Source of the DNA: Candidatus Uzinura diaspidicola str. ASNER
GTDB taxonomy: Bacteria > Bacteroidota > Bacteroidia > Flavobacteriales > Blattabacteriaceae
Assembly (NCBI GenBank): GCA_000331975.1
Contig: CP003263.1
Span: 30,001 to 62,000, forward strand
Reading direction: 5' to 3'
Length of the DNA stretch: 32,000 bases
Shown: positions 8,381-26,525 of the stretch, one piece after another
How the letters are laid out: each line of letters opens with the position of its first letter
Position numbering within the stretch: the first letter of the stretch is position 1
The notes under the pieces: generated by a model
What the model was told of the DNA's origin: nothing
Database searches by the model: none
The model's input: the letters and a program-made list of their open reading frames with translations, nothing else
Translations under genes and position numbers: made by a program

Positions 8381-9039
8381 AAGCACCGTCTATAGACTCT
8401 ATTAATTTTAATAAGTCTCTTGATGGCTTAGTTCCAGCCATTATTCAAGACTCTGATACACTAAAAGTATTGATGTTGGGGTATATGAATGAGGAAACTT
8501 ATTTAAGGAGTTTACAAAGTAAAAAAGTTATTTTTTACAGTAGATCTAAAAAAAGAGAGTGGATAAAAGGTGAAGAAACTTCTCATTCTTTAGTCATTAA
8601 AGAAATTTTTATAGACTGTGATAAAGATACTTTGTTAATTAAAGTAATTCCTTTGGGGCCTACTTGTCATCTAGGTACAAATAATTGTTGGGGAGACATG
8701 AATGAGGAATGCTATAGTTTTTTTAGAACCCTTGAGAAAATTATTTTTTTAAGAAGAAAAATAGAAGTAGGTATTCATAAGTCTTATATTAGAGATCTCT
8801 TTGAAAGGAGTATGAATAAAATTCTCCAAAAAGTTGGAGAAGAAGCTGTTGAACTTATTTTAGAAGCTAAAGAGAATAACAAAGAACGCTTTCTTAATGA
8901 AGCAGCTGATCTATTATTTCATTATTTAGTATTGCTTCAAGCTAAAAATTATAATTTAAAAGATATTCTAGATATTCTAAAAAAAAGAAAAAAACTTAAA
9001 ACCCTATTTTTTTTTAAGAGACCAAAGTCTATTTTTTAA
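8377..9039 (+). CDS. hisI: Bifunctional phosphoribosyl-AMP cyclohydrolase / phosphoribosyl-ATP pyrophosphatase
   Basis: 220-aa ORF. The HisI part has GLVPAIIQD, FYSRSKK..W.KGE, DCDKD and GPTCHLG..NCW. The HisE part has KVGEEAVE and EAADLLFHYLVLL. There is an ATGA overlap with hisF. Confidence 0.9.
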   Translation: MKAPSIDSINFNKSLDGLVPAIIQDSDTLKVLMLGYMNEETYLRSLQSKKVIFYSRSKKREWIKGEETSHSLVIKEIFIDCDKDTLLIKVIPLGPTCHLGTNNCWGDMNEECYSFFRTLEKIIFLRRKIEVGIHKSYIRDLFERSMNKILQKVGEEAVELILEAKENNKERFLNEAADLLFHYLVLLQAKNYNLKDILDILKKRKKLKTLFFFKRPKSIF

Positions 9040-9634
9040 TAGCATAGCTAGTGTAAGAGGCCCAACTTACCAAAAATACTTTTAAAGTATACATCTCCAA
9101 CTAAATTACACCCAGAATCATCTTCCAACTTAATAATTACCCCAACAATAACAAATAACAACAGTTCCTTTAGAAATCATATCCGCTTTTAAAAATCTTG
9201 GTGTATAACTATGATAACTATGTGTTAGTGTGCTATTTCTAGGATTAGATTTACGGTACATAAGCAATACTTAGATTCTTACCTAGAATTACTGTATGTT
9301 TTCCTTTTGGATGGATAGAAAGCTTCTATACTCAAAGCCATTTTTACTATATTTAAAGTATGAATATCATCTATAGAATCACCTTCATTGAGAAATGCTA
9401 GGAGGTAAACCAACACTTTGACAGTCTTTTATTTTTACATATAGTATTATTTCCTACTAATACAGCTACTAAATACGGAGAACGAAATCCTACTATTTTT
9501 ATTTTATCTACTTCCCTAGCAATTTCTTCCCTCATATTTAACGCTAGTGTCTTACCATAAAGAATCTTTGTCATCCTGCTTGTCATCCTGCTTGTCATCC
9601 TGCTTGTCATCCTGCTTGTCATCCTGCTTGTCAT
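9040..9634 (-). pseudogene. folD: Decayed methylenetetrahydrofolate dehydrogenase/cyclohydrolase (folD) remnant
   Basis: The N-terminal 78-aa ORF reads ...MTKILYGKTLALNMREEIAREVDKIKIVGFRSPYLVAVLVGNN (FolD-like). Downstream minus-strand frames give LLAFLNEGDSIDDIH, VNLILEIAH*HIVIIVIHQDF and KLEDDSGCNLVGDVYFKSIF, interrupted by several stops and frameshifts. Only about 595 nt remain, against about 880 nt expected. Confidence 0.75.
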
Positions 9635-9648
9635 CCTGCTTGCCTGCT
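9569..9648. repeat. Perfect 12-nt tandem repeat TGTCATCCTGCT x6, followed by a degenerate 8-nt copy
   Basis: Read directly from the sequence. The copies are at 9569, 9581, 9593, 9605, 9617 and 9629. On the minus strand the unit is AGCAGGATGACA, which contains an ATGA start/stop overlap. Confidence 0.97.
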
Positions 9649-10386
9649 TAAATGTATAAATTGTTGTACAGAAAGTTGCTCAGCTCTTTTATCAAGAATT
9701 GGTATTTTATAAAAAGATTCAGAGAAATTCAAAGATTTCAGCGTATTGCGTAGTTTCTTTCGTCGTTGATTAAAGGATACTTTTACTATTTTAAACAATA
9801 CTGCATCATCCACCTTTTTGGTAACACCTGATTTTCTATGAAGACGAATTACAGAAGATTTTACTTTTGGATGAGGAAAAAAATAATTGTTGGGAACAGT
9901 AAAAATAGATTCTACTTCATAAAAAGCTTGTATAAGAACAGAGAGAATACCGTAAGTTTTGCTTCCAGCAGCAGAACGAATTCGTTCTGCGACTTCTGTT
10001 TGAAACATCCCAATTACTTCAGGGATAAATTTCCTATATTTCAGTAAATAAAATAAAATATTTGAAGAAATATTGTAGGGAAAATTGCCAATTAATGCAA
10101 AAGAAGATAACATAGGATTACATTGAAGAAAATCCATGTTAATGATACTATTTTTTAATGTAGGAAAGACTTTATGTAGATATTTTACTGATTCTGTGTC
10201 TATTTCAATAACAAAAAGATCATTAGTTCTATCTATAAGATATTGGGACATCATTCCCATTCCTGGTCCTAATTCAACTATAGAAGAATACCCTATAAAA
10301 GATAGGGTTTGAACAATTTTCTTAGCTATTTTTTCATCATGTAAAAAATGTTGACCTAAATATTTCTTTGGAAAAACTGTTAACAT
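9631..10386 (-). CDS. rsmA: 16S rRNA (adenine1518/1519-N6)-dimethyltransferase RsmA/KsgA
   Basis: 251-aa ORF with KKYLGQHFL, VELGPGMG and GNFPYNIS blocks. Its TGA stop lies in the repeat copy nearest the gene. Confidence 0.9.
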   Translation of the reverse strand: MLTVFPKKYLGQHFLHDEKIAKKIVQTLSFIGYSSIVELGPGMGMMSQYLIDRTNDLFVIEIDTESVKYLHKVFPTLKNSIINMDFLQCNPMLSSFALIGNFPYNISSNILFYLLKYRKFIPEVIGMFQTEVAERIRSAAGSKTYGILSVLIQAFYEVESIFTVPNNYFFPHPKVKSSVIRLHRKSGVTKKVDDAVLFKIVKVSFNQRRKKLRNTLKSLNFSESFYKIPILDKRAEQLSVQQFIHLSRQAG

Positions 10387-10484
10387 AATAAATCTTACAG
10401 AGAGATATGATTATTTTCATAAGTTTAATTGATCATTAATTATAGGGTTTTTAATTTTATCAAAAAGGAATATACTGTATTCAC

Positions 10485-12080
10485 CTAATGAATCATTAGG
10501 TAGGAGTAATTCTTTTTTTTTAAAAGCTTCCAAGGAAGAGCTTTTATTCTAAGCATTTTCATCATTCTTTCAGAAGTTCTAGGTAAAAAAGGCCCAGATA
10601 ATTGAGTAAGCATTCCAGATATTTGTAAAGAGATATATAATATGGTTTTTGTTCGCATGTAATCATGTTTATGTCTTTTCCATGGAGCTTCTTCCGAAAT
10701 ATATTTATTTCCCATTCTAGCAATTTTCATGAATTCGTTCAAGGCTTGTTTAAAGTGATAGTTTTCTATGAGTGACCCAATATTATCAGGTATTAATTGA
10801 AGAGTTTTAATAACTTTTCTATCTTTTTCTCTTAAAGTTGAAGGTGAAGGTACTATACCAAAAAAAAACTTTTTCGTAAGAATTAATGTACGATGTATAA
10901 AATTTCCTAATATTCCGACCAGCTCTGAATTATTTTGTATTTGAAAATCTTTCCAATTAAAGTTATTATCTTTATTTTCTGGCATTTTAGTTATTAGAAT
11001 ATATCTAAGTACGTCTTGTTGATTAGGAAATTCTTCTAAATATGCATGTAACCATACAGCCCAATTTCTAGAGGTAGATATTTTTTTGTTTTCTAGATTT
11101 AGAAACTCATTAGCATGAATATTTCTTGGTAGAATATAATCACCGTGTGCAATTAGCATTACAGGAAAAATAATACAATGAAATACAATATTATCTTTAC
11201 CAATAAAATTTATCAAAGAAGTACACTTATTCTTCCAAAAAATTTTCCAATTTTTTTTATTATTTATTGCCCATTCAATAGTAGATGATATATAGCCGAT
11301 AGGAGCATCGAACCAGACATAAAGAACCTTATTTTCTATCTCTTTGATTGGAACTGGTATTCCCCAATTTAGATCTCTAGTTATTGAGCGTGGCTTTAAT
11401 CCTCCTTCAATCCATGATTTATATTGGCTATATACATTGGTTTTCCAAAATTTTTTGGAAATACATTGTTTAAGAAATGCTTCATAATTTGGTAAGGGCA
11501 AGAACCAATGAAAAGTTTCTTTAAGAATTGGAGAGATTCCACTTAATGCAGACCTAGGAGAGATTAGCTCATTGGGACTAAGATAGATTCCGCATCTTTC
11601 GCATTGATCTCCAAAAGCTTTAGTATTTTTACAATAGGGACAAACCCCTAAAATATAACGATCAGCTAAAAACTGTCCTTCTTTCTCGTCATAAAATTGC
11701 TTAGATTCTTCTTCAATAATAAGATCTTTATGATAAAGCTCTTTAAAAAAAGAGCTAACTGTTTTATGATGTATCGATGAAGACGTTCTTGAAAAGTGAT
11801 CAAAAGAAATATTAAATTTTTCTAAACATTCCTTTATAATAGAATGATATTTATCTACAACTTCTTGCGTGCTTATACATTCTTTTTTAGATCGTAGTGT
11901 AATAGGGACTCCATGTTCATCAGATCCGCAAATAAAAATTACATCTTTCTCTTTTCGCCTAAGATAGCGAACATAGATATCAGTAGGGATGTAAACACCT
12001 CCTAAATGTCCTATATGAAGAGGACCGTTAGCGTATGGTAGTGCTGCTGTAATTGTATTATAATGATATTTTTCAGACAT
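10485..12080 (-). CDS. metG: Methionine--tRNA ligase, short form lacking a C-terminal tRNA-binding domain
   Basis: 531-aa ORF with the HIGH motif PYANGPLHIGH, zinc knuckle CPYC...CERCG and the KMSKS-equivalent KISTSRN. Confidence 0.95.
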   Translation of the reverse strand: MSEKYHYNTITAALPYANGPLHIGHLGGVYIPTDIYVRYLRRKEKDVIFICGSDEHGVPITLRSKKECISTQEVVDKYHSIIKECLEKFNISFDHFSRTSSSIHHKTVSSFFKELYHKDLIIEEESKQFYDEKEGQFLADRYILGVCPYCKNTKAFGDQCERCGIYLSPNELISPRSALSGISPILKETFHWFLPLPNYEAFLKQCISKKFWKTNVYSQYKSWIEGGLKPRSITRDLNWGIPVPIKEIENKVLYVWFDAPIGYISSTIEWAINNKKNWKIFWKNKCTSLINFIGKDNIVFHCIIFPVMLIAHGDYILPRNIHANEFLNLENKKISTSRNWAVWLHAYLEEFPNQQDVLRYILITKMPENKDNNFNWKDFQIQNNSELVGILGNFIHRTLILTKKFFFGIVPSPSTLREKDRKVIKTLQLIPDNIGSLIENYHFKQALNEFMKIARMGNKYISEEAPWKRHKHDYMRTKTILYISLQISGMLTQLSGPFLPRTSERMMKMLRIKALPWKLLKKKNYSYLMIH

Positions 12081-12142
12081 TTAACTATAAACTTACAAAC
12101 ATTTTTAGTGAAAATGATGATGAGTGAAGTCTTCTAATAGAA

Positions 12143-12255
12143 ATTGGGCAACTACTTACTCTCCCAGGGTTTACCAAGTACCATCAGCGCTAACGGACTT
12201 AACTTCTCTGTTCGGAATGGAAAGAGGTGATCCCCGCCGCATCACGCCACCCAAT
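12143..12255 (-). rRNA. rrf: 5S ribosomal RNA
   Basis: The reverse complement reads ATTGGGTGGCG...CCATTCCGAACAGAGAAGTTAAG...GGTACTTGG...GGGAGAGTAAGTAGTTGCCCAAT. Conserved 5S loop sequences are present and the terminal helix is complementary. Confidence 0.85.
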
Positions 12256-12299
12256 GACATTAATTTCTCCTATAGGAGTTTTAAAATATCTATCAATTA

Positions 12300-15195
<2,896 letters not shown>

Positions 15196-15218
15196 TTAAT
15201 AGATCTTATTTTAATAAG

Positions 15219-15292
15219 TGGAGAATACCGGGCTCGAACCAGCGACCTTCTGCGTGCAAGGCAGACGCTCTAACCAATTAAGCTAATCCCCC
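15219..15292 (-). tRNA. tRNA-Ala (anticodon UGC) in the rRNA spacer
   Basis: 74-nt cloverleaf. Sense strand GGGGGATTAGCTTAATTGGTTAGAGCGTCTGCCTTGCACGCAGAAGGTCGCTGGTTCGAGCCCGGTATTCTCCA. The G3:U70 identity pair is present. Confidence 0.95.
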
Positions 15293-15302
15293 GTTATTCA
15301 TG

Positions 15303-15375
15303 TAGTCCCGCGTGGAGTCGAACCACGGACAACTACATTATCAGTGTAGTGCTCTTACCACTGAGCTACGAGACT
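15303..15375 (-). tRNA. tRNA-Ile (anticodon GAU) in the rRNA spacer
   Basis: 73-nt cloverleaf. Sense strand AGTCTCGTAGCTCAGTGGTAAGAGCACTACACTGATAATGTAGTTGTCCGTGGTTCGACTCCACGCGGGACTA. Confidence 0.95.
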
Positions 15376-15422
15376 TCTAAACCTTATACTTTCCTTTGAA
15401 AAGAGAAAAAAACTTCTCTGAA

Positions 15423-16952
<1,530 letters not shown>

Positions 16953-17141: not shown

Positions 17142-18229
17142 ATGAATTGTTTTGAACAAATAGAAATAAAAACTTCAGATTTGAACTTTAAAATTCCATC
17201 AAAACTTATTGTTGAATACCCATCAAAAGAAAGAGATGAATCTCGTCTTATGGTTATTCATAGAAAAACAGGGAAGATAGAACATAAATTGTTTAAAGAC
17301 CTAATAAATTATTTTGATAAAGAAGATGTAATTATTTTAAATAATACAAAAGTTTTTCCTGCTATTTTGTACGGTTATAAAGAGCAAACAAAAGCTAAAA
17401 TAAAAGTATTTTTACTTAGAGTATTAGATAAAAAAAATAAGATTTTAGATGTCTTAGTAGAGCCAGCTAGAAAAATCCGTATTGGGAATAAAATTTTCTT
17501 CAGGAAAAAAACTCATAAATATAACTATAATTTAGTAGCTGAAGTCATTGATAATACAACTTCAAGAGGAAGAATATTACGTTTTCTTTCAGATCTTTCT
17601 TATGAAGAATTTCAAAAACAACTCTATGCTATTGGAAAAACACCACTTCCTAAATATATAAAAAGAGAAGTAGATAAAAAAGATATGGAACGTTATCAAA
17701 CTATCTATGCAAAAGAAGAAGGTTCTATTGTAGCTCCAGCAGCTGGGTTACATTTTTCTAAACATTTGTTAAAAAAATTAGAAATTAAAGGTATTTCACT
17801 AGCAGAAATTACTTTACATATTGGTTTAAGTGCATTTTCTTCAATAGAAGTAGAAGATTTATCTAAACATAAAATGGACTCGGAAAAAGCAAATATTAAA
17901 AATAATATTTGCAAAATAATTAATACAGCTATTGATAAAAAAAAGCGTATTTGTGCAGTAGGAAATAGTGTTATGCGTACACTTGAAACTACAGTTTCTG
18001 TAAGTAAGCATTTAAATCCTTTTGATGGGTGGACAAATAAATTTATATATCCACCTTATAATTTTAGTATTGCTAACTCTCTTATTTCTAACTTACATAT
18101 GCCTAAATCTACATCATTTATAATGGTCGCGGCTTTTATGGGTTATGACTTAACTATAAAAGCCTATCAAAATGCAGTAAAAGAAAATACAGGTTTTATT
18201 CCTATGGAGATGCTATGCTTATATTATAA
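17142..18229 (+). CDS. queA: S-adenosylmethionine:tRNA ribosyltransferase-isomerase, with a 1-nt frameshift 14 codons before the native stop (possible recent pseudogene)
   Basis: QueA blocks are present: [38 protein letters not shown] and [10 protein letters not shown]. The conserved C-terminus [14 protein letters not shown] is read in a different frame from 18185, with its stop at 18227-18229. The annotated ORF frame runs on to 18401. Confidence 0.8.
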
Positions 18230-18230
18230 A

Positions 18231-18960
18231 ATGATGAATGCAATTGAATACAAGACATTACATCAATATAAAATCTATGAAGAAATATGTAGTTCTATTT
18301 ATGATAGAAATGAAATTAAAGTAATACCTAAATGTTATTCATTATATAATGAAACGAAAAGGAAAACAAATACGTCCAATATTAATATTTCTTATTGCTA
18401 AAATGCTTGGAAAAATTACAGATAAAACATATAATACTGCCTATTTGATATAATTAATCTGCAACATTACTTCATGATGATATAGTAGATAATAGCCATA
18501 TACGACGTGGAAATTTATCAATCAATGCTCTATTGAAAAATAAAATAGCAGTTTTAGTAGGAGACTATCTTTTTCTACAAGTATGATAATTACTATAAAA
18601 TTGTGTTAAAAACTATAGTAAAAATGAGTTAAGGGGATTTACTTGAAATAGAGCAATACAAAAACATATTAAATATTACTGATAAACAGATAGTATTATC
18701 AGGAGGAGCGCATTCAATAGAAGCAAATAAGCATCTTTTTGGATTAGCATTTAAAAAAAAAGATGCTGACTATGAATATTATAATATTGGGAACCCATTA
18801 TCCCTTGATATTAGAAACTTTACCACTAATTATTACAAAACCCTGATTATTGATTCCATTAAAATCACAAAGATGATAAAAATAGAATACAAGAAATTAT
18901 AAATCTTACAAAAAATCTTTAAAACTAATGGTTGCCGTAAAATATAGATGATAGAAAAAA
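18231..18960 (+). pseudogene. ispB: Decayed polyprenyl (octaprenyl-type) diphosphate synthase
   Basis: [33 protein letters not shown] runs from 18349 and is followed by an in-frame TAA at 18451. After a frameshift comes LLHDDIVDNSHIRRGNLSINALLKNKIAVLVGDYL, the first Asp-rich motif, from 18467. Further downstream is FGLAFKKKDADYEYYNIGNPLSLDI, a degenerate second Asp-rich motif, at about 18737. There are multiple stops. The 3' boundary is uncertain and converges with the ccsA remnant. Confidence 0.8.
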
Positions 18961-19930
18961 AAATAATATTTAGATAGAACATACATAAAATAATATGAAT
19001 AGGATCATCTTTTGCCTGACACCTTAATAAATCATTAAGATAGATGAAAGAGCATTTAGCTATTATACTAATCAATGCCCATGTTTCTTTTAGATCCCAA
19101 CTTTGCCCTTTTTCCTCCTAAATAAGGACCGATAGTAAGAAAAAATAACCATAATAAAAGATCCTTTCCCTGATTGAAAAAACCTATGCCTTATAATCAA
19201 GAATATTATTCATGTATACACGTATTTTTTTTTCTATATTTCTATCGACAACTGTCAATTCACTAGAAAAGAGGAGGGAAGATAAGATCCAGGAAATGTA
19301 AGAAAAAAGGAATATTAAAAAACTGGACCATATGCAATAGTAACAGGTTCATTTACAAATTGCTCCAATCCGATAGATTGGGCTCTAATATGTACTTTTG
19401 AGGTATACCATTATAAATAGAACCATTTTTTACTGAAGACAAAATAGTATACTTTACTTTTTATTAGTAAGTACATATAATATATGTTATTTTTAGATTA
19501 TCTTTGTTTAATATAATTTTCTATATTTCCATGTGAACCTATAGGAACTATTTTAATAAACTGTTTACCATTAGAGTTCTCTATAAAATAGTTTTTAGCA
19601 TCCTTGTACTTTAATACATGCATCTTTAAATTGTTATGTAAAGGGTAAATAAGAACTTTTATATTTCCATCATCCATTTGAAGAAATATAAAAGTAAATC
19701 TCTTCTTTAATAGACATTATACCCTCAAACCCCGTTCCACCAATAAAAAGTAATATAAAAGAAAAATAAAATATAAGTAAAGGGAATTTTTCTTTTTAAG
19801 AAGACGATAGCCATAGCCTCCTATATTTTAAAAATAGACTCATAAACTAAATATTTAGCTATGTCGGTAGTGTAAATTATTCTCAATAAAAATACCAACT
19901 ACACCTTCTTTTCTATTAGTTATTCTCCAT
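18930..19930 (-). pseudogene. ccsA: Heavily deleted cytochrome c biogenesis protein (ResB/CcsA fusion type) remnant
   Basis: Minus-strand frames give TDIAKYLVYES (N-terminal ResB-like), GGTGFEGIMSIKEE (19700-19741) and the near-canonical CcsA Trp-rich motif GQSWDLKETWALI (19070-19108; consensus WG.YWSWDPKE.WAL). There are many stops and frameshifts. About 1 kb is left of a gene normally about 3 kb long. Confidence 0.6.
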
Positions 19931-20645: not shown

Positions 20646-20785
20646 TTCTATATGAATTCTTTTAAAGTTAAGAATATTTTTCTTACATATCCTATTAATT
20701 TTACCATTGCACGCATAAATTTTATATAACTAATTATCAATGAAGTTCAGTACTTAACCTTGTTTTAATAACTTTTCTATAGAAG

Positions 20786-21340
20786 ATGAATAAAAAAATA
20801 AAATTATTTGTAAGGTTTTTTTTCCTTATTTCAACTTTTCTATATTTTTATAGCACAGGAAGGAAATATAGAAAATGGTTCTCTTTTATTTAAAAGAAAT
20901 TGTACTTCTTATCATTCTATTGACTATTGATCTTACTAAGAAACTAATTGGACCTCCTCTTTCTGAATTACAGAGAAAAGAAATATAAATTGGCTTCATA
21001 AAGATATTAAAGAAAAATAGAAACAACAGAAAAATTACTTGAAAAAGATTTTATAAAGTTCATTATTATTGGTTTTTCGATTCGAACCTATTGATAGATG
21101 GGATATACCTTATCCTTTTATACATAATTGAATTGCCCTTTAAGTATGATGGAAGGAAAATATATTGAAGATGGAAAAAACAAATATAAAGCCTTTAATG
21201 TAGGTTGCAATTTAAATATACGTCATTATTCAACGTATACTTTATCTATAGAGCTTATCATGGAGATATTAAAAAAATGGATAAATGGGTATAAATTATA
21301 TAGAGAATTCAGTGTTTCTAAAATGTAATTAAACTTGAAA
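20786..21340 (+). pseudogene. actA: Alternative complex III cytochrome c subunit (ActA-like) remnant
   Basis: A signal-peptide-like MNKKIKLFVRFFFLISTF is in one frame. The cytochrome c domain AQEGNIENGSLLFKRNCTSYHSIDY* is in another, with CxxCH mutated to CTSYH and a stop at 20928. A multihaem remnant FIYRAYHGDIKKMDKWV (CxxCHG changed to YRAYHG) lies at 21247-21264. Confidence 0.65.
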
Positions 21341-21469
21341 AAGTAAATAATATACATGAATTTGCGTGTATTACTATAGAAATTTATTTAAATATACCAA
21401 AGAAATATGAAATGAAGAAGAACAAATTGAGACATATAAAGGAAAGAACGTGATAGATCAAAAGGTCAT

Positions 21470-21990
21470 CATTTTAATTTGATAATTGTTTTCCTGTATT
21501 GGCTGTGGCAAAATTGCATGTTTTTGTAGTTGGAAAGAATGAAGAGTTGATCGTTATTAATATTAGCTAAACATGGTTTTTCTCAACATAGAATGTTCTA
21601 TGACACCTGAAATGTATTTTAATCCAATAGTTATTTTTCAGCCTGTGTCAACATTGTTCCAATGCTCCATGCGAAACAATATGTCCGGTAGGTGCAATAT
21701 CTCATGGAGGACACAATACGAGATGCTAATAACTGTCCTTATAAAGTTCGTAGTTTTAATTGGTTTAAGAAATAATGATATTGAAAGAATGATATATAGT
21801 CCTGATGTTGTATTAAGAAGTAGGGGTGTAATGGAAAAATGATTTAAAAGAAGGAAGAAAATTAAAAGATGAAGAATTTCAGCCTTCTTGTACTAAGGCA
21901 ATAATTTTTGGAGATATTAACGATAATGAAAGTAAAATTTACGAGAAGATTAAAGAGAATAGAAGTTATAACCTTCTAAATTTTCTTCTT
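21470..21990 (+). pseudogene. actB: ACIII Fe-S subunit (ActB) remnant. Only the ferredoxin-like C-terminal domain is recognisable.
   Basis: Recognisable blocks are CIGCGKIACFCSWKE (21495), CQHCSNAPCETICPVGAISH (21646), NNCPYKVRSFNWF (21728), SPDVVLRSRGVMEK (about 21798) and IIFGDINDNESKIYEKIKENRSYNLL (21901). They are spread over three reading frames with stops. The roughly 700-aa molybdopterin-like N-terminal domain is essentially absent. Confidence 0.75.
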
Positions 21991-21992
21991 TT

Positions 21993-22745
21993 ATGAAGAC
22001 CCTTTCAGCATTTTTATGGGGTTCTATAATAACTGGAATAGGTGTTTGGGGGGTAAATAGAACTATAAATTGGGCATGGGATATTACTAATTTTGTATGA
22101 TGGGTTGGAATTGTTCATATTGTTCAGGAATATTGATTTATGCAGTACTTTTAGCGTCTCTCAGCAGAGGGACAATTTTTTCTGTGATTCAGGCCTTATT
22201 ATGTCCTCTTTTATGTTATTGCGATAAGATACTTCTTTTTCAATATCTACTGTCTTTTGATTCCTTGGCAATTATTTGAAGAATTATCTCTTGTATTAGC
22301 AGGATTATGCGCTCCTTTTTGTTTCTTTTGATTTTGCAACTTCAATTATTAAACTCTCCTTATTTTGTAGATGGAGCGGCACAGGGGTTGCATCTTTTAG
22401 ATGTCGTTAGGAAAGTTCTTAGAAGATTAGTTCCTGGTATTCATGTAGCCCCTTTGAAGATTTTACTTATTTTTCTACAGGGCCTTTTTGGTGGGCTTCA
22501 TTATTTGTAATGTACTTATTCCTCAATTGTTTAAGAAGGTCATATTATTTTATTAATTTTGGAATGTGGTTTAAACGTTTTGATATTATTGTTATAAATC
22601 TAAGTCATGATTATGCCATATTGTACTGAATTTTTACCTTCTTTTATAGATATAGGAATTTTTATAGGTAGTTTTTTCTTTGTACTATATCTTATTTATG
22701 CCCGTACTTTTCCTGTAATTGCTCAATCATAGTTAAAAACTATAG
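21993..22745 (+). pseudogene. actC: ACIII NrfD-like membrane subunit (ActC) remnant
   Basis: MKTLSAFLWGSIITGIGVWGVNRTINWAWDITNFV is followed by TGA at 22098-22100, where homologues have Trp, and then WVGIVH. Later blocks are GLCAPF...FDFATS-like, GPFWWASLF and FGMWFKRFDIIVINLSHDY (22561-22620). There are several frameshifts. Confidence 0.75.
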
Positions 22746-22762
22746 TAAAATAACAAAAAAAG

Positions 22763-23100
22763 ATGAGAAAGAAGACTACTACAGTGATTTATAGAAAATC
22801 CCGGTTCCATTATTTGGAACTGCTTTAGTATATATTACTTGATTGGCCTCAAGATATTGGTGGAAAAATATTGGTGGAAAAAGCCTGCCTTAATCTTAAT
22901 TTCCCATCCTTTATTCCTATTATATTTTAACTCACTATATTTTTTTTTATGTGTATAACCTACTTGATAATCTTCTCCAAGGAGCCAAATCCTCGAAGAT
23001 TAAAAAGTTTGTGAATAAAGATAAGGTGCCAAAGAAGTGATTATAAAAGAGTTTCCTTCATGAATATTATATATATTATAGTGATTTATAAGAAATTATA
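22763..23100 (+). pseudogene. actD: ACIII DUF3341 subunit (ActD) remnant
   Basis: MRKKTTTVIY... is followed by LDWPQDIGGK (22841-22867) and, after a frameshifting 14-nt tandem duplication, NFPSFIPIIF (consensus DWP.NIGGKP...PAFIPVTFE). The remnant is truncated. Confidence 0.55.
22854..22881. repeat. Perfect 14-nt tandem duplication ATATTGGTGGAAAA x2
   Basis: Read directly. Copy 1 is 22854-22867 and copy 2 is 22868-22881. It sits inside the actD remnant, and its length is not a multiple of 3. Confidence 0.95.
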
Positions 23101-23470
23101 TACGAGAAGAGTTTATATGACAGAGATATATTATTCTATTCAGATACGTCCTTTTGGATATTTCACGTACGGAAAACCAAATACTTACCTATACTTTACC
23201 TAATTTTAATAAAGGATTAGGTTGCATCATTAAAAATTACTGAATCACCTTTAGATTACTTTGATATTGAAAGAGGAAAATCCATGTATAAAATAAATTG
23301 CGCTATTTGTCATGGAGATAATGGACAAGGAGAATTAGTTAATACTGAAAAAATTCTTGGTGTTCTAGACTATAGGCAGTGTATGGGAAAAAGGGGATAT
23401 ATGGTTCAGAACTAATACAAGAATACCTATGGTAAATAGCAGAATATGTAGATTAAAAAATATGTTCCTA
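23100..23470 (+). pseudogene. actE: ACIII monohaem cytochrome c subunit (ActE) remnant
   Basis: SPLDYFDIERGKSMYKINCAICHGDNGQGELVNTEKILGV has an intact CxxCH at 23299-23313, but it is flanked by stops and frameshifts. No full-length ORF is present. Confidence 0.6.
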
Positions 23471-24144
23471 AATAATCATAGGGCTTTTCTCCAATAGTTA
23501 TTGGACAAACAGTTTATTTTCACCCTTCATATCATCAAACTTTTTTAGATAAAGCACATAATCGTCCCGCTAGGATAGCGTTTTATATGGGTAAAATATT
23601 ATTTCACTGGGATTTCTTTAGGCGCATTCTAGTAATTCAATATATAGGGGAATTATAGTAAGTAATGTGATAGAAGGGATTATCACTTTTCCTTATTTTC
23701 TTAATATTTCTTATACCTTCTTACCTCTTCTATATATTACTGTATGGACATTTTTTATGTTGTGGATGAGTACTATATCAGTATTATTTATTTCTTTTTT
23801 TTCTATTAGGTGGAAGTGGGGAATGAGTCTAGAATCTTTTGGATGGTATGTATTAGTAAGTTATTGGGTGTGTTTTTGCTCTTAACAAAGTCATAGTATT
23901 TACTACTAGTTTATGTAATGGATATATTTGTGGTTTTCACAATTATTACTTTATTGGTATGGAAATATTCCTGAAGAAAGGTCCTATTTTATTAAACGTG
24001 CATTTAATCTTTGATGATTCCTATGATTTTAGGAATTCCATTTTTAGGACACATGATAGATATATATTTTTGGCGTTTACTATTGTAGGCAGCTTATTTA
24101 TTTTTATTGTCTATAGGAGTATTAGAAGCTTTCAACTGCCCTAA
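23470..24144 (+). pseudogene. actF: ACIII membrane subunit (ActF) remnant
   Basis: The fragments are FGWYVLVSYWVCF (consensus FGWYVFSGMW) and WIYLWFSQLLLYWYGNIPEERSYFIKR (23919-24000; consensus YLWFSQFMLIWYSNIPEE.TYF). They are in different frames with stops. ORFs 23667..23885 and 23959..24144 are pieces of it. Confidence 0.7.
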
Positions 24145-24190
24145 CGACTAAAGAAACCCACTATGTAATGAAAGTGCAATTGTATATTTT

Positions 24191-24601
24191 TTATTGAAAA
24201 TAAATAGCGTACTTTTTTATAGCTCTAAACATAGCCTCAATTCCATTAGCTCTATTAGAAGTAAGAAAAGAAGAAAACCCAATTTTCTCTATAAAAAGAG
24301 GAGTGTTATGAATGATTTCATAAGGAAATTGTCCAGAATATATACGTAACATTAAAGCAGCAATCCCTTTAGGGACGAGAGCATCACTATCAGCATGGAA
24401 AAATATTTTATTAAATTTTATATAAGCACGCAACCAAACTTTAGATTGACAACCAATAATAATATTATTATTAGTTCTTAAATTCTTAGACCTTTTAGGA
24501 AGTTTTTTCCCTAAAAAAATAAGATATTCATAACGCTCTTCCCAACTTTCGATGAATAAAAACTCATCAATAACTTTTTGTATATTTTCTTTTATACACA
24601 T
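24191..24601 (-). CDS. sufE: Cysteine desulfuration (sulfur acceptor) protein SufE
   Basis: 136-aa ORF with the SufE active-site block IIGCQSKVWL and the DSDALVPKGIAAL block. Confidence 0.85.
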   Translation of the reverse strand: MCIKENIQKVIDEFLFIESWEERYEYLIFLGKKLPKRSKNLRTNNNIIIGCQSKVWLRAYIKFNKIFFHADSDALVPKGIAALMLRIYSGQFPYEIIHNTPLFIEKIGFSSFLTSNRANGIEAMFRAIKKYAIYFQ

Positions 24602-26457: not shown

Positions 26458-26525
26458 AATTAAAGTGTTTTAACCATACTAGCCAAAACAATCGCTAAAG
26501 TATATTTCCCTTTTCCCACCTTAAT

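Follow-up and report, generated by a model that had tools for sequence, protein, structure and literature searches.

This study focused on a 32,000-nucleotide (nt) stretch, hereafter the window, of the ~263-kb genome of Candidatus Uzinura diaspidicola ASNER, an armoured-scale symbiont, and in particular on the remains within it of an operon for alternative complex III (ACIII), actABCDEF. The flavobacterial aerobic chain runs from menaquinol via ACIII and cytochrome c to a terminal oxidase. Remnants of all six genes, actA to actF, were found collinear on the plus strand at positions 20783-24184, flanked by sufT and sufE. About 3.4 kb is left of 8.2 kb, the operon having shrunk to ~41% of its intact length. 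The longest open reading frame (ORF) within 20646-24190 has 89 codons, none reaches 90, and the pieces of every act gene fall into two or three frames; frame changes number at least 20 across the locus, and stops of all three types occur. When the six intact proteins of one relative were used as tblastn queries against the window, all six subunits were matched on the plus strand in the order A-F, and blastn against the relative gave 14 collinear segments of 62-95% identity, compared with 80-85.5% in the flanks. As judged from these alignments, the similarity is far beyond chance. The initial annotation of this DNA had proposed six ACIII remnants in canonical order, compressed to about 3.4 kb from an intact operon estimated at 8-9 kb; both searches bear out the order and the compression, except that the remnant ends slightly further right, at 24184, and the estimate agrees with the 8,192 nt of an intact operon in a relative (contig L009).

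The actA remnant (20783-21285; tblastn E = 1e-14) derives from the multihaem cytochrome c subunit and lies in three frames with stops. Three of its haem motifs have been destroyed by substitution, with CTSCH changed to CTSYH, CMNCH to LNCP and CKACH(G) to YRAYH(G), and the remaining ones are deleted. In actB (21304-21969; tblastn E = 4e-21) the remnant consists of the C-terminal Fe-S (ferredoxin-like) part only, with traces covering about residues 592-917 of 942 and the blocks CIGCG.., CQHCSNAPCETICP, NCPYKVRSFNWF, RSRGVMEK and FGDINDNES kept. The largest gap of the locus, ~2.1 kb (a blastn jump in L009 from 9685 to 11751), begins in the 3' part of actA, spans the spacer and takes the first ~585-590 residues of ActB, so that the N-terminal molybdopterin-oxidoreductase-like domain is deleted and ActB no longer has two domains. 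The NrfD-like, quinol-binding membrane subunit ActC (21990-22750; tblastn E = 3e-31) shows at least seven frame changes and a stop at a conserved Trp (TGG to TGA), in GIGVWGVNRTINWAWDITNFV-stop-WVGI (that is, ...NFV-stop-WVGI); its block GMWFKRFDIIVINLSHDY is also present.

The actD remnant (22832-23060) was detected by tblastn at E = 1e-6, or 3e-12 without composition correction. It contains a perfect 14-nt tandem duplication, ATATTGGTGGAAAA, in 2.1 copies at 22854-22882, and the frame is shifted right behind DWPQDIGGK; this is a frameshifting insertion amid a locus mostly shaped by deletions. In the monohaem cytochrome c gene actE (23099-23450; tblastn E = 5e-23), CAICH is intact but lies inside a 43-aa ORF, and the remainder is in other frames. 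The second NrfD-like membrane subunit, ActF, is represented at 23515-24184 (tblastn E = 3.5e-19) and includes the block YLWFSQLLLYWYGNIPEE. All motifs quoted in the initial annotation were recovered in three-frame translation, each aligned to the expected residue of the intact orthologue. They comprise the mutated ActA motifs CTSYH and YRAYHG, to which LNCP can now be added as a third; both ActC blocks, the one with its internal stop included; DWPQDIGGK...PSFIPIIF of ActD; the intact CAICHG of ActE; and the ActF block. The description of ActB as retaining cysteine clusters while having lost a large N-terminal domain was likewise correct, given the tblastn matches and the ~2.1-kb deletion.

Altogether about 4.8 kb of 8.2 kb is gone, including that one block. 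The fraction of each reference gene that can still be aligned is 39% for ActA, 25% for ActB, 49% for ActC, 46% for ActD, 57% for ActE and 40% for ActF, so the share lost per subunit ranges from 43 to 75%. Gap density in alignable segments was ~34 events/kb in the act remnants versus ~4/kb in intact korA under the same settings, absolute counts being dependent on the aligner and the blastn-segment settings placing a few spurious gaps in intact genes too. When gap extension was made very cheap, a global alignment became over-fitted (88% identity over 155 blocks), and it was dropped for indel counting. Evidence independent of the relatives came from Pfam, where the ActD family (PF11821) matched the translated window with E = 6e-5. 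The other Pfam matches on translated frames were weak and in the expected order, with Fer4_11 in actB ahead of ActD and Cytochrome_CBB3/Cytochrom_C at the CAICH of actE behind it. ActC of Flavobacterium johnsoniae (PDB 6btm_C) also matched one window frame directly (phmmer E = 3.5e-7). No RNA family was found by Rfam in the act remnant region, and none of the small ORFs within the fossils equals a deposited protein.

Intact loci were found in four Uzinura-like relatives that were reached via KorA: L001 (ERR7747426; also L009 and L010), L004 (SRR12131187), L005 (SRR14141929) and L007 (ERR12726211). All four have the map korA-sufE-[actF,E,D,C,B,A on the opposite strand]-sufT-DUF3127-ccsBA, so that their intact actABCDEF sits at the same position as the ASNER fossil. 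Contig L009, which comes from ENA (320,859 bp), belongs to the L001 organism and is oriented like the window, served as reference; it carries queA, ispB, ccsBA (1045 aa), DUF3127, sufT, actA-F (8435-16626), sufE, korA, mrp/apbC and lpd. Across L001, L004, L005 and L007 the intact proteins measure ~430 aa (ActA), 942-1020 aa (ActB), 450 aa (ActC), 175-179 aa (ActD), 197-199 aa (ActE) and 428-432 aa (ActF). The lower ActB value belongs to L001/L009 (10001-12829), where the gene is called at 942 aa, versus 1007-1020 aa in L004, L005 and L007, and is preceded by a 267-nt gap (9734-10000) behind actA; either the start is mis-called or an N-terminal (Tat-signal) region has been lost. It is unlikely that the intact operons stem from unrelated co-resident bacteria, because KorA of the relatives is 78-84% identical to that of the window and the synteny is identical.

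Homology to ACIII was assessed by PDB sequence matches, because NCBIfam has no ACIII-specific models and the relatives' proteins gave only related Qrc/Dsr matches there. The best PDB matches of a relative's ActA-F were chains A-F of 6BTM, the F. johnsoniae ACIII (E between 2e-32 and 6e-271), with the complexes of Rhodothermus and Roseiflexus ranking next. Homologues of ActB are annotated in Blattabacterium, Karelsulcia and Bostrichicola, with identities of 55-86%. Since intact orthologues match 6BTM and ActB is annotated in those three genera, ACIII is the normal state in this symbiont group. The two comparisons that had been suggested for the locus, a similarity search with ACIII subunits and an alignment to relatives that retain the complex, gave concordant answers: the relative's ActA-F match by tblastn and 6btm_C matches directly, and the collinear remnants align with an intact operon at the same position.

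The locus shares the order actA-B-C-D-E-F and the signature blocks of all six subunits with the ACIII of F. johnsoniae (6BTM), Rhodothermus marinus (6F0K) and Roseiflexus castenholzii (6LOD), but differs from these in that its subunits are untranslatable, the ActB N-terminal domain is deleted and ActA has lost its haem sites to mutation or deletion. With Blattabacterium, Karelsulcia/Sulcia, Bostrichicola and other Uzinura-like symbionts it shares ancestry, and with the Uzinura-like lineages also the chromosomal position. Those symbionts have the operon under purifying selection, whereas ASNER and its two nearest relatives do not. The window contains no full-length act ORFs, no ActA CXXCH sites and no two-domain ActB, and the adjacent cytochrome c maturation gene is also a fossil; on sequence grounds, quinol:cytochrome c oxidoreductase activity from this locus would be implausible.

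Selection was compared through p12/p3, the ratio of differences at codon positions 1 and 2 to those at position 3, over 2,988 coding positions of L009 aligned in all comparisons. At act sites the ratio was 0.68 for the window versus 0.30 for L004, 0.33 for L005 and 0.35 for L007, while the flanking korA, sufE, sufT and DUF3127 genes gave 0.37 for the window versus 0.36-0.42 for the relatives. Relaxed constraint is limited to the fossils and to this lineage. For actF alone the ratio reached 1.14, and this gene retains no residual constraint. That the lesions are sequencing artefacts, with homopolymer errors or misassembly disguising an intact operon, might be entertained given that the genome dates from about 2012 and that a single-base deletion near the 3' end of neighbouring queA could be such an error, yet it is extremely improbable. 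The haem-ligand cysteines were replaced by substitution and not by indels, the substitutions show relaxed constraint, and the flanking genes are intact. Assembly errors, raised in the initial annotation as a possible source of the frameshifts and stops, were checked and excluded on the basis of the ~4.8 kb missing (the ~2.1-kb block included), the codon-position signature, and the presence of the same decayed loci in two independent assemblies of related lineages.

It is also exceedingly unlikely that a working ACIII persists in reduced or recoded form, by reading UGA as Trp, by programmed frameshifting or as split mini-subunits. A single TGA at a conserved ActC Trp and the intact ActE CXXCH motif would fit such a scheme, but stops of three kinds, at least 20 frame changes and the loss of 43-75% of each subunit would not, and neither would the destroyed ActA haem motifs and the fossil state of ccsBA, which is needed for haem attachment. 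The standard genetic table reads the intact genes of the window normally, and UGA reassignment has been reported absent in Uzinura (PMC3787670).

The initial annotation had attributed the decay to relaxed selection on the quinol:cytochrome c branch of respiration. For the act locus this is correct, the p12/p3 values being 0.68 versus 0.30-0.35 with the flanks unaffected, but the relaxation is not confined to that branch, as ispB and ccsBA are fossils as well. The ispB remnant (18301-18875, plus strand) derives from a long-chain polyprenyl diphosphate synthase that makes the quinone side chain; it was identified by tblastn (summed E = 5e-48) and nucleotide alignment, with the reference gene assigned by NCBIfam, and is ~79% alignable, though split among three frames and broken by stops and numerous deletions. 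The ccsBA remnant (19061-19877, minus strand) derives from a ResB-CcsA fusion of system II cytochrome c maturation and was found by tblastn when CcsBA N-termini of three relatives served as queries (E = 1e-10 to 1e-14). Of the 3.1-kb gene about 0.8 kb survives, in fragments corresponding to residues 21-381 and 934-947, the full-length CcsBA of L009 adding fragments when used as query. That query was taken from the ActB-centred locus L009, and intact ccsBA genes were recognised by Pfam ResB and Cytochrom_C_asm together with TIGR03144. Pfam found nothing on three translated frames of the ccsBA/ispB fossil, and for this reason the identification of both rests on close relatives. Full-length Uzinura proteins were not among the results of a protein search with the 220-aa CcsBA N-terminus of L007. 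The interval between queA and DUF3127, which in L009 holds ispB and ccsBA and spans 4.4 kb, measures 1.7 kb in the window and has no ORF of 90 aa or more.

A further gene, mrp/apbC, encoding an Fe-S carrier, has been entirely deleted between korA and lpd. In L009 it occupies 18902-19642 (741 nt; NCBIfam ApbC), and in the window a 68-nt spacer is left at 26458-26525, with a blastn jump in L009 from 18880 to 19809. The suf, DUF3127 and kor genes interleaved with the fossils are intact. Among these, the DUF3127 gene (ASNER_054, AGC66831.1; 19936-20277, minus strand; tblastn E = 2e-50) lies between the ccsBA fossil and sufT. The sufT-like Fe-S assembly gene (ASNER_055, AGC66832.1; 20319-20645, minus strand; NCBIfam TIGR02945), 87% identical to its L001 orthologue, formed the left synteny anchor, and sufE (24191-24601, minus strand; NCBIfam SufE), whose L001 orthologue is 84% identical (E = 9e-76), the right one. 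Three interdependent functions have decayed side by side: synthesis of the quinone side chain, attachment of haem to cytochromes c, and electron transfer from quinol to cytochrome c.

Two lineages closer to ASNER, reached via exact-sequence clusters of the SufT and QueA of the window, carry fossils of their own; a single contig scan with SufT returned an unrelated Cytophagales metagenome-assembled genome only. The first is the symbiont in SRR30758779, whose KorA is 88.5% identical to that of ASNER and which a neighbour-joining tree places as its sister. Its contig L012 reads [ccsBA remnants, ~360 nt]-DUF3127-sufT-[actA remnants], and in a three-way alignment its deletions were mostly unlike those of ASNER. 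Past the ccsBA fossil, L012 (Logan SRR30758779) has mnmE/trmE at 1807-2121, not ispB/queA, which implies a rearrangement or a deletion junction; queA of this symbiont is on a separate contig (L013), followed by a shortened 5' end of ispB. The second, ERZ761561 (L014), also occurs in the JGI metagenomes 3300030504 and 3300003845 (together L014-L016). It has the gene order of the window from hisA to lpd, a sufT-sufE gap of 2.4 kb, and ispB and ccsBA fossils; actA to most of actC are gone, while actD-F are better kept than in ASNER. At 16808-17517 of L014, and in the same way in L015, korA itself is reduced to fragments, with ~0.7 kb aligning to the korA of the window at 65-76%. Each of the sister lineages goes on losing genes in its own way.

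Nucleotide distances, taken over five intact genes, gave the relationship ((ASNER, SRR30758779), L014), and L009 fell outside this group, as did the other intact lineages. Divergence between fossils over all sites was 0.10-0.145, with 14-89 gap events, while intact genes differed by 0.15-0.20 at third positions and by 0.01-0.10 at first and second positions. Fossil divergence is therefore near the intact third-position level and above that of first and second positions. By parsimony, which is not proof, ACIII function was most likely lost before the three fossil lineages split; the relics have been eroding independently since, in near-neutral drift through at least two lineage splits. A competing account, which concerns timing only, has act, ccsBA and ispB still intact in that ancestor and inactivated separately afterwards, for example following oxidase loss or changed conditions. 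This would fit the differing deletions of the three fossils, in which the comparable 0.5-2 kb shows no clear common frameshift or stop, as well as the L014 locus, without actA-actC yet with more of actD-F than ASNER, and the ccsBA segments that L012 keeps and ASNER lacks, and vice versa. It is rather unlikely, since all three members of the sub-clade carry every fossil that can be compared and the sampled outgroups are without exception intact, and since fossil divergence already near the intact third-position level is what would be expected if both copies had been free of constraint during most of their history after the splits. One candidate for an ancestral lesion, a ccsBA deletion in ASNER and L014 with right breakpoints within ~15 nt of each other, was rejected, as the closer relative L012 keeps sequence inside it. 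The relaxation had been called recent in the initial annotation, and this requires qualification: with four relatives intact, the loss did fall inside the Uzinura clade, but it is not fresh, as the two closest relatives carry independently eroded fossils.

Homology, synteny, disruption of all frames, a relaxed codon pattern, four relatives with intact operons and two sisters with eroded fossils lead us to conclude, with a probability of roughly 95%, that window positions 20783-24184 are a non-functional, eroding relic of the ACIII operon actABCDEF. From what is known of the pathway, the ancestral operon would have specified the quinol:cytochrome c oxidoreductase of the flavobacterial aerobic chain. 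The respiratory chain presumably became needless in the sub-clade of ASNER, so that selection on its parts would have been lifted jointly; the trigger may have been loss of the whole chain, with the host cell presumably supplying energy. After what was probably a single inactivation in the common ancestor of the three fossil lineages, actA-F, ccsBA and ispB gathered stops and frameshifts and steadily lost DNA through deletions of all sizes, while DUF3127, sufT, sufE, korA and lpd, which are unrelated to respiration, remained under purifying selection.

Several points weigh against this interpretation. No unambiguous inactivating lesion common to the three fossil lineages was found, and deletions are largely lineage-specific. 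The p12/p3 ratio is crude, being based on uncorrected distances and on only the alignable 25-57% of each gene. There may be residual transcription or a small peptide, for which the 43-aa ActE fragment with CAICH is one candidate. Finally, the absence of an oxidase, complex I and ATP synthase from ASNER is taken from a published table. Rosas-Perez et al. 2014 (PMC3971599, Tables 1 and 3) list Uzinura ASNER there without NADH dehydrogenase, cytochrome c, a cbb3-type oxidase and ATP synthase, and the same study gives seven pseudogenes and a coding density of 89.3% (PMC3971599).

The loss of respiration in ASNER is thus already published, and the locus, a well-preserved fossil, represents ordinary reductive evolution, a known process; it leaves unchanged the published view that ASNER has no respiratory chain. 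A comparable case is Walczuchella, reported to keep electron-transport genes while its ATP synthase decays (PMC3971599). Both are flavobacterial symbionts of ~0.3 Mb in which decaying genes of energy metabolism have left fragments that can still be aligned (PMC3971599, PMC12188211), but the genes and the lineage are different, and in ASNER, where the chain is reported wholly absent, relics of ACIII, ccsBA and ispB remain. In a Walczuchella metagenome-assembled genome (CP170567; L002 4293-9841) and a Logan contig (L003 870-3526), the cbb3 genes near korA are only fragments, with COX1 at 116 aa, FixO at 97 aa, FixP_N at 72 aa and a cytochrome c at 104 aa, which suggests that the terminal oxidase is decaying in parallel in the giant-scale symbiont. 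Literature searches turned up no study comparing several genomes of Uzinura. In the searchable literature, no description was found of the ACIII, ccsBA and ispB relics, the intact sister copies or the replicated erosion, although pseudogene features of the record may cover the relics.

On balance, the Uzinura clade appears to be polymorphic for aerobic respiration: the sub-clade of ASNER, SRR30758779 and ERZ761561 would have abandoned it, selection would still maintain ACIII, the maturation of cytochrome c and the synthesis of quinones in sister lineages of other hosts, and the relics would outlast at least two lineage splits while eroding independently. If true, this would provide a natural, replicated experiment on how fast and in what spectrum of events DNA is lost at a genome size of ~0.26 Mb, and on which parts of an energy-generating system go first as a mutualist becomes fully dependent on host energy. 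The locus shows that the ancestor of ASNER respired via ACIII, and it places the loss of respiration within, not before, the Uzinura radiation. Eroded copies in two sisters and intact copies in four other relatives offer material for calibrating deletion bias and pseudogene half-life. The act, ccsBA, ispB and mrp genes are indicated as jointly dispensable. Large, still-alignable pseudogenes are uncommon at ~0.26 Mb, which makes the locus a useful marker, with no new mechanism involved. There is also a warning for annotation, in that the "intergenic" gaps of 1.5 kb and 3.5 kb in ASNER are the remains of genes.

The window is AT-rich (GC content 24-33% outside the rRNA operon) and contains his genes, rsmA, metG, one rRNA operon, queA, suf genes, korA, lpd, dapA, fmt and metE. 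The queA gene (17142-18401, plus strand; AGC66830.1) lacks one G near 18186 relative to its closest relative, AAAGAAAGATAC having become AAAGAAAATAC. The last ~11 codons are shifted and the ORF is extended to 419 aa, versus 362-366 aa elsewhere, and the normal C-terminus and stop are still conserved in the other frame; the lesion may be a sequencing error, very young, or tolerated through slippage. A probable folD fossil lies at 9040-9640 on the minus strand, where an N-terminal KILYGKTLALNMREEIAREVDKIKIVGFRSPYLVAVLVGNN and a C-terminal VGPLTLAMLLKN occur in different frames and the Pfam match to THF_DHG_CYH reaches only E = 0.025. A 12-nt unit (TTGTCATCCTGC), repeated perfectly in tandem in 6.2 copies at 9568-9642, lies at the start of this fossil and overlaps rsmA at its 3' end.

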